From the sequence record MN101221.1: DNA of 64,000 bases; one strand, 5' to 3'. The translations under genes and the position numbers were made by a program. Positions 15,530-43,755 of the stretch are shown here, one piece after another. The notes beneath the pieces were generated by a model. It was given only the letters and a program-made list of their open reading frames with translations. It was not told the DNA's origin and did not search any database. Each line of letters opens with the position of its first letter. Within the stretch, counting starts at the first letter, position 1. The stretch is from Klebsiella phage KMI7.

Positions 15530-16465
15530 TCAAAAATCACTTAGTTTTTCGAACATACGGGAAAGTTTGTTATCCATGAAGTAACGTTCCATTTTGGCTT
15601 TACTTCCGGATTTTGGAGTATTATACGCTTCAATAATCGAATTTTCAATATCTTTTGGTATAAATTCGAAATCACGTAGTTCCTCGTTTTCTTTGTAACG
15701 TGCGGCCCATTCAGGGGTCATCAACGTTGTCGGGTCGTCTGCCTCTAGCCATGCCTCTAACTCAGAGGATTTTACCGCTGGGGCGCGTTCACCTTCAACT
15801 TTCGTCACAATATAATCATTTCTGATTTTAATGCAAGCGATACTATCTTTTTTATCGCCTTTGATATTTTTGTATCGCAGATCGTTACGTGGTGAACCGT
15901 ACTTAGGCGTTACCCATTTTTTCTGGGGAGGCGACCATTGACGAACACCGTTATATTTTTGTAGTTGTGTAAAGTCGCTATCAGCGGAAACCACTAATAC
16001 TCGTCTACCTTCACCAACAGCCTTTTTCGTAACAACAGCAATTATATCATCAGCTTCCGCGAATTCAACCTTTAATCCGAGATAAGGCATATTCTGACGG
16101 ATTTCTTCGAACACCGGATTCAGGAAGTTGTTCAGACGATCCCAATCCCATTCTGATTCTTCGTGTTCGATCTGACGACGTTTTTTGTAGTACCAGGCTT
16201 TTTGCCTACGCCAGTAATTTCTGTCATCGAAGGCAATCACGATTTCTGGATACTCGCCTTTAAATTTTACAACGTTAAACCTTAAAGTGTCAAGCACCAG
16301 ATGACGAATCATTTCGATCGTGATGGATGCTTGTTCCTTTGGTTTGAAGTTATTCATCAGTGTAGCGATGGAAATGTTAGAGATATCGATGACCATAGTA
16401 TCATCGGGTTCCCCTTCATCTTGCATCAGCTTGTTCAAGTTAAACATGCTTGCAAAGCTGCTCAT
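15530..16465 (-). CDS. rnh: RNase H / 5'-3' flap exonuclease
   Basis: 311 aa (T4 Rnh is 305 aa). Matches YWRR, EWDW, ADD, SSDGDFTQL-like SADSDFTQL, GDKKD motifs. Confidence 0.85.
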   Translation of the reverse strand: MSSFASMFNLNKLMQDEGEPDDTMVIDISNISIATLMNNFKPKEQASITIEMIRHLVLDTLRFNVVKFKGEYPEIVIAFDDRNYWRRQKAWYYKKRRQIEHEESEWDWDRLNNFLNPVFEEIRQNMPYLGLKVEFAEADDIIAVVTKKAVGEGRRVLVVSADSDFTQLQKYNGVRQWSPPQKKWVTPKYGSPRNDLRYKNIKGDKKDSIACIKIRNDYIVTKVEGERAPAVKSSELEAWLEADDPTTLMTPEWAARYKENEELRDFEFIPKDIENSIIEAYNTPKSGSKAKMERYFMDNKLSRMFEKLSDF

Positions 16466-16557
16466 ACATACCTCAATTTTTCAAAGAACGGGGTTATTGT
16501 AGTAACTTACGAAATGAAGTCAATACAAAAGATCATAAAATTTTTGATCAATAATAC

Positions 16558-16586
16558 TTGATTTGATCAAATTTATGATCTATAAT
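16558..16586 (+). promoter_or_regulatory. sigma70-like early promoter TTGATT-N17-TATAAT
   Basis: TTGATT at 16558-16563, 17-nt spacer ending ATGATC, TATAAT at 16581-16586. Directed toward gene 55, inside the GATC-rich island. Confidence 0.5.
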
Positions 16587-16728
16587 TTATTAATTAATAA
16601 TTATTTTACTACAATGATCATTGTAGGTCAAGTACTAAAATCAATAAATTTTATATAATTTAGATCTGATCTATAGATCATTAGATCTACTTTAACCTTA
16701 AATAATATAGAATGAAATTTGATTTTGT

Positions 16729-16756
16729 CTACAGTTATTATATAATATTCTTAACT
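16729..16756 (+). promoter_or_regulatory. candidate promoter TTGATT-N16-TATAAT proximal to gene 55
   Basis: TATAAT at 16751-16756, 14 nt upstream of ATG 16770; the RBS AAGAGGAAAT lies between them. Confidence 0.4.
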
Positions 16757-16769
16757 TCAAAGAGGAAAT

Positions 16770-17297
16770 ATGAATACTATGACTAAAGAAACAACCAATA
16801 TCTACGCAGACAATGAAAAATTATACCCTATCCTCTGTGCATGGAAAAAGCAAATCGCCGAAACAGGTGATCGCAAAATGCCTAATGAGTTGGGGGCTGC
16901 TATTATGGATATTGCAAACGGGCTATCACGTCGTTACAACTTCAACCGTTATTCCGAAGATTGGAAAATGGATATGATTGATGACGGAATTTCCGCTGCA
17001 ATCTCAGGACTGCATAACTTCGATGAAACTCGTTATACCAACGTTTACGGTTACATTAACAAAGCATGTTGGCAAGCATTCGTAACACGTATTCTGTACG
17101 AGAAAAAAGAGAACGCGAAGAAATATAAATTCTTCCTTGAGCACGTTTACGACTGCGAAGATTCAGATATGGTTAGTATTGCAGACGAAGGTTTCATTCA
17201 AGATCTACATGACAAACTATCTCAGTACGAGGCTTCCGCCACCAAAACCAAAGACAAGGAAGCGGAAGTATTCCCAACATTGGAAGATTTTCTATGA
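16770..17297 (+). CDS. 55: late sigma factor gp55
   Basis: 175 aa (T4 gp55 is 185 aa). Sigma region-2-like segment, synteny with 47/46. Confidence 0.85.
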   Translation: MNTMTKETTNIYADNEKLYPILCAWKKQIAETGDRKMPNELGAAIMDIANGLSRRYNFNRYSEDWKMDMIDDGISAAISGLHNFDETRYTNVYGYINKACWQAFVTRILYEKKENAKKYKFFLEHVYDCEDSDMVSIADEGFIQDLHDKLSQYEASATKTKDKEAEVFPTLEDFL

Positions 17298-22185: not shown

Positions 22186-22575
22186 TTCATGCGCAAAGGT
22201 GCTTATGTGTTTAGCGCGGTGTATGATCCTGCTGTATCTAAGTATCGTCCGGCTGCACAACTTCGCGGAACCATGTTCGAAGACGAAGACGGCGCTTGCC
22301 TGGATATGATCGTTGATACGTTCAAAGAGTTGCAGAAACTGAAACCGAGTGTTCAAGGCGTTGTGAACGCGATCGATAAGATGAACGCAGAGTTTGCAGC
22401 GGGACATCGTTCAGCATCTTTTGTTAAACGTGTAGCTGCTCAGGAAGCCGCGCCGAAGCCAGAAGAGAAGCCAAAACGCACTGTTAATCGTATCGGTAAA
22501 GAGGCACTGGAAGAACGATATTCCAACATCACGGGGATCTTTTCCCCGTCCTTGACGTTGTTAATGATATCCTGA
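22186..22575 (+). CDS. hypothetical protein (ORF track 22084-22575 starts with GTG; first ATG at 22186)
   Basis: The +1 frame opens 44 nt before the J-domain gene stop. This could be an independent gene from ATG 22186 or a frameshifted continuation of the J-domain protein. Confidence 0.35.
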   Translation, partial: FMRKGAYVFSAVYDPAVSKYRPAAQLRGTMFEDEDGACLDMIVDTFKELQKLKPSVQGVVNAIDKMNAEFAAGHRSASFVKRVAAQEAAPKPEEKPKRTVNRIGKEALEERYSNITGIFSPSLTLLMIS

Positions 22576-24828: not shown

Positions 24829-26172
24829 TTAGAAATTGTCTTCGACAAACGCCGCGAGACGGGAACGATACACTGTATCAAGAATGATATGGCTTGAGTG
24901 TTCGTATTCTTTCAGCTTTTCAACAGCCCATACAAACCCGTTGTTAACGGCAGTGTTTCGAGGGTTGTCGATCTGCTTAATGTTCCCGCATAGTATCAGA
25001 AGTGTGTTCTCTCCGCAACGAGAAATGATAGATTTAATTTCGTGGTTGCTAAGGTTTTGACATTCATCAACAATCAGCACAGAACCTTTGCCCGGATCCG
25101 GATGTCCGATACTGCGACCACGGAAGTAATACAGGCTAGGGAATTGCACCACCCCTTTTTCAATCAAACCTTCAATGTATTTTTCAGATTCCGGATTATC
25201 CTTAAACAGAATATTCAGGCTAGTAATACAAGGTTCGATAGAAGGCCGGAGTTTTTCGCCCAATGTACCAGGAAGGAAGCCGATTTCACTTGATAACGGG
25301 CTATCTGACTTCACATACATCAAGTTAGCGTAATGTCCACTATTAACCAGGTGCATAGCACCGGAAACAGCAAGCATTGTTTTACCAGAACCAGCGCCGC
25401 CCATAATGGTAGCAACATCGATTTCATTGCTCATAATGGATTCGACAAAAGCCGCTTGCAGAGAATCACGGGGCTGAATAGCTTTCATGAGTTTGCGTTT
25501 CATAGCCTGTTCGTGCTTAACAGGTAAGACATTCAAGCAAATCTCATCAGCAGTCACCACACGCCCGACTAACTCACCATTTGAGGTAATGTACTGGTTA
25601 GGATAAAAATCTTCGTCAGGAAGCGAACTGTAAGTGATTTGGGCTACATTATCTGTATATCCCAACACTTCTACGGTATCCCAGAAATCAGGGATCTCTA
25701 CATAACCGGAATACAATACATCGCTATCTTTTAACGTATCGTCGCCAGTATACTGTTCTACCTTACACCCACGGGACATTGCGATCAGCAACATCATAAT
25801 ATCGCGAGTAACTAAGGTTGCATCCTGTTGCATACAAGTTTCAATGATTCGTTCGTCTTGCTTGTCAAGAGCAAACGTTTTGTTTCCGACATAATCAACC
25901 ACTTTAAGGGTGATAGTGTCAGACAGTGCTGGGTTTGTCAGGTTTAAAGGAATACCTGATTTCGTAATCGCATCATATGACTGACCGAAAATAACTTTTG
26001 ACAGAAGCCGGATCGCCAATCGTGCTTCGTGCGCTGTTCGTTCTTTCGTTTTCAGGTGATCTAATTCACCCATAGTAGCAGAGGTAATAATGATTTCTGT
26101 ACCAGGTTGAGTGAATGAATAGATTGAATAGGGGTTCGAGACTAAAACGTTAGTGTCTAAAACATATTTCAT
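24829..26172 (-). CDS. phoH: PIN-domain / PhoH-like ATPase fusion (PhoH2-type)
   Basis: N-terminal MKYVLDTNVLV PIN signature; C-terminal Walker A GGAGSGKT and Walker B LIVDECQN. Confidence 0.85.
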   Translation of the reverse strand: MKYVLDTNVLVSNPYSIYSFTQPGTEIIITSATMGELDHLKTKERTAHEARLAIRLLSKVIFGQSYDAITKSGIPLNLTNPALSDTITLKVVDYVGNKTFALDKQDERIIETCMQQDATLVTRDIMMLLIAMSRGCKVEQYTGDDTLKDSDVLYSGYVEIPDFWDTVEVLGYTDNVAQITYSSLPDEDFYPNQYITSNGELVGRVVTADEICLNVLPVKHEQAMKRKLMKAIQPRDSLQAAFVESIMSNEIDVATIMGGAGSGKTMLAVSGAMHLVNSGHYANLMYVKSDSPLSSEIGFLPGTLGEKLRPSIEPCITSLNILFKDNPESEKYIEGLIEKGVVQFPSLYYFRGRSIGHPDPGKGSVLIVDECQNLSNHEIKSIISRCGENTLLILCGNIKQIDNPRNTAVNNGFVWAVEKLKEYEHSSHIILDTVYRSRLAAFVEDNF

Positions 26173-36749: not shown

Positions 36750-37071
36750 TATGTATCACCCACAGCAATAAAAAAGAATTGATAAATGCAAAAGTGGTAC
36801 AGATTGCAGCAAAAACACGCGCATTATGAACCTGTGTTTTCAATTCTGCGATCTCTTGATCCTTTTCGCTTTCAAACTCTTCGCGAGTACCATAATACCC
36901 AGGATCGTTAGCCGTTGCCAATCTAACCGCATCTTTTTCAACCAGCGTTGCGTAACCGCTTTTTATTTGTGTCGCCCCGTACCATCCACCCCGATCGTTG
37001 TTAATGATCAGATGATCGCCCTTTTCGTTATGCTTTGATTCGCCAACAACAATAACCCGCTTACCATTCAT
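36739..37071 (-). CDS. hypothetical C-terminally membrane-anchored protein
   Basis: 110 aa; C-terminal hydrophobic AAICTTFAFINSFLLLWVI. Confidence 0.45.
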   Translation of the reverse strand: MNGKRVIVVGESKHNEKGDHLIINNDRGGWYGATQIKSGYATLVEKDAVRLATANDPGYYGTREEFESEKDQEIAELKTQVHNARVFAAICTTFAFINSFLLLWVIHNVG

Positions 37072-42441: not shown

Positions 42442-42520
42442 AGGATCTCCTTTCCTCTATTTAGCGGGGAACGGGATCAAAGCGGCCTGACGGGGTAATA
42501 TAAAAATTTGAAGAAAATGC

Positions 42521-42549
42521 TTGACCTTTTAAAATCTTTGATCTATAAT
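42521..42549 (+). promoter_or_regulatory. consensus sigma70 promoter TTGACC-N17-TATAAT
   Basis: TTGACC at 42521-42526, 17-nt spacer ending TTGATC, TATAAT at 42544-42549. Lies in the GATC-rich AT island. Confidence 0.55.
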
Positions 42550-42636
42550 AATTTTTAATTAAAATTTTATCAAAAAGATCTAACAAGATCAAGTAAAATT
42601 TAATAAATAATTTATCAAAAATTTTTAGATCTGATC

Positions 42637-42665
42637 TTGAATTCATAAATTTTATGATCTATAAT
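42637..42665 (+). promoter_or_regulatory. sigma70-like promoter TTGAAT-N17-TATAAT
   Basis: Spacer ends ATGATC as in the 16558 promoter; TATAAT at 42660-42665. Confidence 0.5.
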
Positions 42666-42810
42666 ATATTAATATTTTATTTTATCATAAATTTTTATGA
42701 AGATCAATACTTAGATCTAATAAATTTTATGCTTTTTCTGAAAACTTTTCCTTTACCCCGTCACTAAATACTGGTACTATGTTCCCATATTGGAAATCAG
42801 GAAAAACAAA

Positions 42811-43755
42811 ATGACTCACTTGAAAAAATTCAAAGAATTTCTGACCGAAGGTAAAACCCTCGCTCGTACCGTAGCACGTGGTCAACGCGCTAAAACTTCC
42901 GATAAACATTCAATCGGTTTTCTTCACTTCAAACATGGTTCTGATTTCGAAGTTTTAGCACCGGATTCTCACGATCTGGCATACTTCGGTAAAAACATTG
43001 TACGTTTGAAAGGTATGACTACTGGTAAAGTTCAAGCGGCTTATGTCGATTGGGCTAAAGGTACTGTTTCTTTCTACAGTGGTAATCCGGATAATGATAT
43101 GGATTTCGATAAACCAGAAAAATTCAAAGCTGCTACTCTGTATGAAGAGGCGGAAGAAAATCTGGATCTGTATAACCAGTTAGCAGAAGATTTCGAAATC
43201 GAGATCCCTATGGATGAAGCTCTGGTGAAAGGTAAAGTTTACAAACTCCCAAGCAACGATATGCGTCTTCTGTACACTGGGCGTTCTAAAACTAAAGCAA
43301 GCGGTGAATATGCAGTGTTTACCGTAGTCGATGCTTCCGGTAAACCTCGCCTGGTATCTGGTAAAAAATTCACCCAGGAATATAAAGGCGATATGGTTTC
43401 TAAACTGGTTCTGGCTGAATCGGAGGAAATCAATGAAGCTGTTGTGGGGAAGTCCTCACCTAATGTTAAAAAATTGGTTGCTGCACTAAAGAAAAAGTTT
43501 GATGTTTACGTGGAAGTAGAAAAAAAGAAATTTTACAACGAAAAGACTGAATCATTCGAATATGAAACCGTCGTTAGTGTTGAATACTACGAAAAAGGCG
43601 AAGATTCAGAACCGATCGGCGTATTCCGTACATCAGACGACCAGAAATTTACATTTGGTCATATCTACAGTAAAGCGGGTTCTGATCATGGTAAAGCGTT
43701 TGATGTAGCACATATTGTTTCCGGAATTAAAACCGGACATTACGATCCTAAGTAA
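42811..43755 (+). CDS. hypothetical lysine-rich protein (inserted between genes 3 and 2 on the opposite strand)
   Basis: 314 aa from ATG 42811 with SD AGGAAAAACAAAATG (ORF track uses TTG at 42790). A terminator follows it. Confidence 0.55.
   Translation: MTHLKKFKEFLTEGKTLARTVARGQRAKTSDKHSIGFLHFKHGSDFEVLAPDSHDLAYFGKNIVRLKGMTTGKVQAAYVDWAKGTVSFYSGNPDNDMDFDKPEKFKAATLYEEAEENLDLYNQLAEDFEIEIPMDEALVKGKVYKLPSNDMRLLYTGRSKTKASGEYAVFTVVDASGKPRLVSGKKFTQEYKGDMVSKLVLAESEEINEAVVGKSSPNVKKLVAALKKKFDVYVEVEKKKFYNEKTESFEYETVVSVEYYEKGEDSEPIGVFRTSDDQKFTFGHIYSKAGSDHGKAFDVAHIVSGIKTGHYDPK

Follow-up and report, generated by a model that had tools for sequence, protein, structure and literature searches.

Clustered GATC sites among predicted divergent sigma-70 promoters in the rnh/gene 55 spacer of Klebsiella phage KMI7 and at two further loci of Slopekvirus genomes

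The DNA analysed here (the window) is a 64-kb stretch of the genome of Klebsiella phage KMI7, a member of the genus Slopekvirus (Straboviridae), and the element under study is a 304-bp non-coding spacer at 16466..16769, referred to below as island 1. It separates rnh (RNase H; 15530..16465, minus strand), which leads the leftward block rnh-dsbA-33-59-32, from gene 55 (late sigma factor gp55; 16770..17297, plus strand), which leads a rightward block. This region of the window is about 99% identical to the Slopekvirus phages KP15, KP27, Matisse and Miro, and the coordinates and flanking genes given in a preliminary description of the spacer proved correct, both genes being 99% identical to their annotated counterparts in KP27, Matisse and Miro. 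As all KP27 genes from rIIA through rnh are on the minus strand and those from 55-47-46 onward are on the plus strand, the rnh/55 spacer is a major point of divergent transcription, in agreement with what had been proposed from the local arrangement.

The spacer has a GC content of 21% and contains nine GATC sites (at 16531, 16546, 16565, 16577, 16616, 16663, 16668, 16676 and 16684), all inside 157 bp (16531-16687) or about one per 17 bp. The preliminary description had put the number at about ten, so that the cluster stands although the exact count does not. The number expected is 0.54 from mononucleotide composition and 1.09 +/- 0.94 from dinucleotide-preserving shuffles, bracketing the single site that had been estimated, and the observed number, about 17 times the composition-based prediction, was reached in none of 5000 shuffles of the island, whether mono- or dinucleotide. 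The window as a whole has 466 GATC sites (7.3 per kb) and its mean density would give 2.2 in the spacer, as against the nine found. Among the 4-bp palindromes that contain G or C, GATC is the only one present more than once in island 1, and the bases flanking it are nearly always A or T.

Promoters were sought as −35 and −10 hexamers near TTGACA/TATAAT separated by a spacer of 16–18 bp. A scan of 601 bp gave 8 sites compared with 3.9 +/- 2.0 in shuffles, and four predicted promoters in island 1, each matching 10 of 12 sigma-70 consensus positions, are also present in the KP27 annotation. P5 (TTGACT-16-TACAAT; 16523..16496, minus strand), which is nearest to rnh, and P4 (TTGACC-17-TAAAAT; 16631..16603, minus strand) point towards rnh-dsbA-33-59-32, while P1 (TTGATT-17-TATAAT; 16558..16586, plus strand) and P2 (TTGATT-16-TATAAT; 16719..16746, plus strand), the latter nearest to gene 55, point towards gene 55. 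P1 and P2 are the two promoters quoted in the preliminary description, and the two leftward ones are additional to it; the divergent sigma-70 early promoters that it proposed are thus supported by consensus scans and the KP27 annotation, which are both in silico evidence. P1 and P4 face each other and, judged from the positions of their hexamers, their predicted starts would nearly coincide.

The GATC sites are arranged with respect to these promoters and to three palindromes. An imperfect 52-bp palindrome (palindrome A, 16530..16581) contains four of them (16531, 16546, 16565 and 16577) and two TTGATCAA octamers. The spacer of P1 holds two GATC, the second of which is flush against the −10 hexamer in the island-specific word TGATCTATAAT; Dam sites had been said to overlap −10 elements, and it is their proximity that holds, since the site abuts the hexamer and does not overlap it. 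Directly downstream of the P1 −10 is a run of 22 nt of pure A/T (16587..16608), a candidate unwinding element, the right end of which overlaps the −10 of P4. The P4 spacer lies within a perfect 18-bp palindrome, CTACAATGATCATTGTAG (16609-16626), with GATC at its centre. The third palindromic element, block B (16662..16688), consists of nested palindromes, AGATCT-GATCTATAGATC-ATT-AGATCT, with four GATC sites that lie outside any good promoter, and lies between P4 (minus strand) and P2 (plus strand), about 78 bp from the predicted start of either. Because of the three palindromes the single-strand fold of 16520-16700 is strong (−26.1 kcal/mol compared with −12.2 +/- 2.5 kcal/mol in shuffles, z = −5.5).

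A number of known types of element were ruled out for island 1. A structured RNA family was rejected as 16300-16900 gave no Rfam match at E <= 1, and an iteron origin, of which P1 oriR and T4 oriE are examples, as Tandem Repeats Finder returned no tandem repeats in the island. Matches to the DnaA box were not above those in shuffles, IHF sites were absent and 13-mers of the type GATCTnTTnTTTT were not enriched, which rules out an oriC-like origin. A borrowed plasmid origin was discarded for want of any meaningful plasmid similarity.

For genome-wide counts the complete KP27 genome was assembled from four pieces. A composition-corrected scan of this genome gave three standout GATC islands, in the rnh/55 (9 sites), gp3/KP27_206 (10 sites) and gp24/uvsY (7 sites) spacers, with Poisson p values of 3e-8 to 4e-10, the enrichment being significant independently in each of the three. 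The only AT-rich segments of 370–413 bp in KP27, which are its longest, are the same three islands (9, 9 and 7 GATC), and six shorter AT-rich segments have 0–2 GATC. As the KP27 total of 1130 GATC matches the 1146 expected from a trinucleotide Markov model, genome-wide over-representation is ruled out and the excess is local to the islands; the comparison of observed with expected counts that the preliminary description had suggested therefore upholds a local excess but not a general one. GATC is not a general promoter feature either, since the 34 promoters annotated outside the islands in KP27 (19 sigma-70-like and 15 'middle') carry one GATC in total, which makes it a property of the islands and not of the promoters of the phage.

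Island 2 (42442..42810) is a 369-bp spacer between gp3 (minus strand) and the orthologue of KP27_206 (plus strand), has 10 GATC and is paralogous to island 1. Two promoters are predicted in it, both on the plus strand. The first (TTGACC-17-TATAAT with TTGATCTATAAT; 42521..42549) has its −35 overlapped by the MotA-box-like TGCTTGAC and is annotated as a 'middle' promoter in KP27; the second (TTGAAT-17-TATAAT; 42637..42665) includes ATGATCTATAAT and is preceded by TAGATCTGATCT. The recurrence of a motif in this second island, also noted previously, was confirmed, ATGATCTATAAT being found again at 42654. Island 3 is outside the window, at KP27 134943-135255, in the gp24/uvsY spacer upstream of uvsY, and has 7 GATC and a GC content of 17.6%. 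It contains two leftward TGATCTATAAT sites, only one of them with a recognisable −35 hexamer, that point towards the end of late gene 24, where no open reading frame is annotated for them to express.

Certain words are exclusive, or nearly so, to the islands. In KP27 all five occurrences of TGATCTATAA, all seven of TATAGATCA and seven of the eight of AGATCTAA fall within them, and a TTGAnn −35 at 17 bp accompanies four of the five TGATCTATAA sites, in which the −10 is followed by about 20 nt of pure A/T. In the window TGATCTATAAT occurs three times and TAGATCTGATCT twice. The stretches shared between islands are of 23 bp at most, so the GATC excess is not one duplicated block. The early and 'middle' promoters outside the islands have a different peculiarity, in that a GC-rich terminator-like hairpin (aaaaagcccTTGAC/TTGCA ... 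ggggcttttgtTATATT) lies inside the spacer; examples in KP27 are at 24998-25026, 93265-93293 and 153971-154000 and these, unlike the island promoters, are without GATC.

Island 1 is nearly invariant across 10 Slopekvirus genomes. Compared with the nine others the window has gained a GATC at 16531 (GACC to GATC), which raises the symmetry of palindrome A, and lost one at 16561-16564 (GATC to GATT), so that nine are kept. Differences between the window and KP27 affect GATC sites at 4.4% versus 3.2%, a trivial excess that gives no hint of rapid turnover of GATC or of sequencing artefacts in the window.

In the sister genus Pseudotevenvirus (RB43, Miller, leE and HMGUkp1) and, at a greater distance, in Pantoea phage Phynn the rnh/55 arrangement is retained, as is a spacer of about 300–320 bp, but this has 1–2 GATC and a sequence unrelated to island 1. 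The GATC cluster is thus not conserved in Pseudotevenvirus, where spacer length has been kept and sequence replaced. What the RB43 spacer contains is itself a repeated element that also fills the gp3/206-orthologue and gp24/uvsY spacers, and orthology of the flanking genes at all three was confirmed by tblastn. The three copies in RB43 (HE981739.1; in piece numbering, L007 1237-1557 and L025 8214-8495 and 42925-43188) are unannotated, occupy spacers of 264–321 bp and have a common core of about 110 bp. The element is partly palindromic, reading GAGCGAAGCGAA ... CACGAACGAAGTGAGTG ... AACTACA, 35 nt of A/T, TGTAGTT ... TTCGCTTCGCT, and most of it is present in 63 of 65 matching records, mostly Pseudotevenvirus, with exactly three copies per near-full-length record among the matches listed. 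It resembles the islands in its occupation (in RB43, RB16 and Miller) of the same three orthologous spacers, in copy number, in approximate length, in its A/T core and in being unannotated, and differs from them in the GC-rich inverted repeats (GAGCGAAGCGAA ... TTCGCTTCGCT) around the 35-nt A/T core and in the 1–2 GATC. It may be regarded as a candidate cassette for origin or regulatory function. As the outgroup Phynn carries the RB43-type element at rnh/55, the installation of GATC islands at the three loci seems to be an innovation of Slopekvirus. No intermediates between the two genera were present among the 8 loci with gp55 found in IMG/VR. The presence of different triplicated elements at the same loci in two sister genera is the strongest argument for a shared cis-acting function beyond expression of the neighbouring genes.

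The three loci were compared with the origins of T4, the only one of these phages in which replication origins have been defined experimentally; even for T4 the determinants of their location and use are still an open question (Kreuzer and Brister, PMC3016281). T4 oriF, oriE and oriG are at transcription strand switches, oriF and oriG each pair a middle-mode promoter with an A+T-rich unwinding element, and the T4 origins have no common motif (PMC3016281). In the T4 record oriF is at the start of uvsY, oriE falls within gene 5 (part of the 1-3-2-4-53-5 cluster) and oriG within gene 34, 2.2 kb from rnh. From these positions island 3, at the uvsY promoter, is an exact positional match to oriF, while the equivalents of oriG and oriE are close to islands 1 and 2, island 1 adjoining rnh and island 2 being in the 1-3-2-4-53-5 cluster; for oriE and oriG it should be noted that agreement is approximate, as they are 2–4 kb away and within genes 5 and 34 whereas the islands are in spacers. 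Islands and T4 origins are further alike in having a promoter followed by an A+T-rich stretch and in lying at switches of transcription direction, although the 22-nt run after P1 is shorter than the T4 unwinding element of about 50 bp. The promoters, however, differ. Those of oriF and oriG are MotA-dependent middle promoters, and those of the islands are of the sigma-70 consensus type; no MotA box is present in island 1, and TGCTTGAC occurs at the first promoter of island 2 only. The earlier suggestion that T4 origins sit in comparable early-promoter regions needs correction: the promoters at oriF and oriG belong to the middle mode, and GATC clusters are lacking there. A search for MotA and AsiA, limited to four proteins picked by map position, gave no Pfam match.

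The genus encodes an enzyme that may act on these sites. KP27_267, which is conserved in Slopekvirus and lies outside the window, belongs to the Dam family (147.6 bits for TIGR00571, where the cut-off is 114.85) and is 55% identical to T4 Dam, from which we infer that its specificity is for GATC. The preliminary description credited the phage with its own N6-adenine methyltransferase; the methyltransferase-like open reading frame inside the window, at 1630-2403 on the minus strand (the orthologue of KP27_035), has only borderline matches to Pfam MTS and N6_Mtase and is distinct from the Dam-family enzyme. A deposited genome may bear on methylation itself. Of the 39 departures of the CPRSA record (OM971648.1) from KP27 in this region 11 are on GATC, which accounts for 3.8% of the bases, and most of the others are homopolymer indels; this is the pattern expected of nanopore miscalls at methylated adenine and may indicate methylation, the sequencing platform being unconfirmed and the record error-prone, with fragmented genes. 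On the host side, 11 GATC are present in the 246 bp of oriC and 6 in the dnaA promoter, the binding of SeqA depends on how densely GATC sites are packed, and a homologue of SeqA exists in Klebsiella (PMC5145175, PMC2912659). As SeqA occupancy follows density, nine GATC in 157 bp, denser than the one per 20–40 bp or so over 150–250 bp that marks clusters of the oriC and dnaA-promoter type, are the kind of substrate that the host sequestration system recognises. Island 1 is comparable with oriC and the dnaA promoter of Escherichia coli in GATC density, AT-rich context, embedded promoters and the presence of SeqA in the host genus, and differs from oriC in having no DnaA boxes, IHF site or 13-mer enrichment; the islands are also three per genome and belong to a lytic T4-like phage with its own replisome. 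Among Dam-sensitive promoters IS10 pIN, P1 cre, dnaA 2p and trpR have GATC within or next to the −10 or −35, and SeqA stimulates certain lambda promoters. The islands share with these the location of GATC in spacers, against the −10 and about 65–90 bp upstream, and potentially the logic of replication-coupled control, but the known examples have 1–3 GATC per promoter and the islands 9–10 per 300 bp. We know of none in a T4-type phage and none that forms a three-member genome-wide set.

Taking together the observed anatomy and statistics of the islands, their uniqueness in the genome and the orthology of the three loci, we propose that the islands may be Dam/SeqA-responsive blocks of sigma-70 early promoters that might also be transcription-primed origins, a composite reading that we rate at a little under an even chance. 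Its parts are not equally secure. That the promoters function, as a compound early-promoter region, is highly probable; that the GATC cluster acts through Dam and SeqA is evenly balanced; and origin function is a tentative suggestion, on the doubtful side, although plausible in view of the three-locus set, the orthology with the RB43 element, the positions of the T4 origins, the promoter-A/T module and the leftward sites of island 3. Island 1 would on this proposal be a compound bidirectional block of promoters for host RNA polymerase built around three GATC-bearing palindromes, P4 and P5 driving rnh-dsbA-33-59-32 leftward and P1 and P2 driving gene 55 rightward. Host Dam and the phage Dam-family enzyme would both methylate the GATC sites, which lie within promoter spacers (at the −10 of the TGATCTATAAT promoters and centrally in that of P4), within −35-like TTGATC hexamers and within block B, the palindromic element between the divergent P4 and P2. 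Injected phage DNA would be fully methylated, and the first passage of a replication fork would leave the cluster hemimethylated. Because a dense hemimethylated cluster is the preferred substrate of host SeqA, promoter activity could in this way be coupled to replication state. Since A/T runs follow the TGATCTATAAT promoters and the islands are placed as are T4 oriF, oriE and oriG, the island transcripts may also prime replication, as at a T4 origin made up of promoter and unwinding element, and SeqA would then limit re-use.

Several observations weigh against this proposal. The proximal promoters P2 and P5 are without GATC, a single site (16531) lying about 40–45 bp upstream of the predicted start of P5, and the spacings in island 1 (15, 19, 12, 39, 47, 5, 8 and 8 bp) show no helical phasing, although oriC is likewise unphased. 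The Pseudotevenvirus Dam is 87% identical to that of Slopekvirus, yet the same spacers have 1–2 GATC in that genus, so that possession of Dam does not of itself call for GATC clusters. The T4 origins have 0–1 GATC per 300 bp, and the cluster is thus not inherited from T4 origin design; the background is also different, at 1.4 GATC per kb in T4 and 6.5 in KP27. Phage Dam, if made early, could re-methylate the sites fast and shorten the hemimethylated period. Finally, we found in the literature no transcript, start-site, methylome or origin mapping for Slopekvirus, and neither the KP15/KP27 genome paper, the slopekvirus comparative preprint nor the review of genomes of T4 relatives mentions the GATC sites or the islands.

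If the island is primarily an origin, one of three, the emphasis shifts: its promoters would serve for primer or activating transcripts, the A/T runs for unwinding and GATC, like that of oriC and P1 oriR, for licensing, sequestration or melting, and expression of rnh and gene 55 would be secondary. We consider this rather unlikely. It is favoured by the triplicated, partly palindromic A/T-core element at the orthologous loci of the sister genus, and the Phynn element would imply concerted replacement at three loci and hence one shared function; the agreement in position with T4 oriF (exact) and with oriE and oriG (rough) at switches of transcription direction, the promoter-then-A/T architecture, the leftward sites of island 3 with nothing to express and the rank of the islands as the most AT-rich long segments of the genome point the same way. 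On the other hand, strong promoters are expected at direction switches without any origin, the matches to oriE and oriG are 2–4 kb off and inside different genes, the T4 origins have neither shared motifs nor GATC clusters, and the DnaA boxes, IHF sites, enriched 13-mers and iterons of other origins are all missing. A more specific form, in which the three islands are the Slopekvirus origins, fire under licence of adenine methylation through SeqA and arose by concerted replacement of an ancestral triplicated origin element that RB43-like phages and Phynn would still carry, is improbable. So too, and somewhat more so, is a role of the palindromes (TTGATCAA, CTACAATGATCATTGTAG and AGATCT-GATCTATAGATC-ATT-AGATCT) as operators for a dimeric DNA-binding protein of phage or host, with the Dam site incidental or secondary. 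The grouping of GATC in three palindromes, the fold at z = −5.5, the island-exclusive longer words (TATAGATCA and AGATCTAA) and the A or T flanks are as operators would have them, and the other repeated words at the same loci of the sister genus look as if cis-element and binding factor had been exchanged together; but GATC is itself palindromic and symmetry arises easily, A/T flanks follow from 21% GC, and no single extended motif is present, the GATC core alone being common to at least six hexamer contexts. No binding protein came to light as a candidate, and the small open reading frames nearby are of unknown function.

The two remaining explanations have far less in their favour. The GATC excess might be a functionless by-product of the spread of promoter modules (TTGATC-type −35, GATC-TATAAT −10) by duplication or gene conversion among the three spacers, which we regard as very unlikely. 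TTGATC matches the −35 consensus at 4 of 6 positions and recurs as a predicted −35 hexamer, some GATC are in words shared between islands such as TGATCTATAAT and TAGATCTGATCT, and one site is lost and another gained in the window relative to the nine other genomes. However, only about three of the nine GATC of island 1 are in shared words of 12 bp or more, similarity between islands being limited to 23 bp, the four sites of block B are outside good promoters, the other 34 annotated promoters have almost none and each island is significantly enriched independently. A packaging initiation site like P1 pac, with cleavage under Dam control through two flanking GATC clusters, is hardly credible. 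Both P1 oriR and P1 pac have clustered GATC in a short AT-rich cis element and depend on Dam methylation, and the layout of pac, with 4 + 3 TGATCA/G hexamers in 162 bp, resembles that of island 1, which has a cluster of four GATC on each side of about 80 bp with a palindrome at the centre, 157 bp in all. TGATCA, though, is found at only three of the nine sites, three dispersed copies would not be expected, and the phage has the T4-type terminase genes 16 and 17; T4-type packaging is headful and uses no unique pac site. As for oriR, it has regular heptamer repeats together with RepA iterons and DnaA boxes, and island 1 has no tandem repeats or DnaA boxes.

The three elements are sequence-defined, genus-specific and at orthologous loci in two sister genera, and so provide clonable candidates for origins or regulators in the RB43/KP15 group, which includes many phages of Klebsiella, Enterobacter and Cronobacter under development for therapy. 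If the Dam/SeqA proposal were true, a T4-type lytic phage would be coupling early transcription or origin firing to first replication by means of host sequestration, and phage-encoded Dam would have a regulatory role; to our knowledge it has no clear phenotype in T4. Were the islands SeqA-licensed origins, the phage would possess a replication-coupled switch-off of both origin and early transcription that co-opts the host control of oriC. Even if Dam and SeqA are not involved, no early promoters predicted elsewhere in the genome are as strong as those of the islands, which would still be of use as parts in phage engineering.

Two features of the window around island 2 may be recorded. The KP27_206 orthologue was considered as an initiator like T4 RepEA/RepEB and set aside, since its only match is to a PHROG family whose function is unknown, and a Pfam match is lacking; at its 3' end (window 43439-43752) 313 bp do not align with the 157 bp present in KP27, and its product is of 314 amino acids in the window compared with 262 in KP27. 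Between islands 1 and 2 the window passes at about 22,499-22,504 straight from KP27 position 36,917 to 81,608 and skips 44.7 kb that include frd, td, nrdAB, DNA ligase and baseplate genes 27, 28, 29, 48, 54, 51, 26 and 25, essential genes for the baseplate and for nucleotide metabolism among them. The two sides of the join share no homology, and of 142 matching phage records not one extends across it. The window is not collinear with any deposited Slopekvirus genome; the join at about 22,500 results from a deletion, from chimerism or from assembly. As a result of this jump islands 1 and 2 are 26 kb apart in the window and about 69 kb apart in intact genomes.

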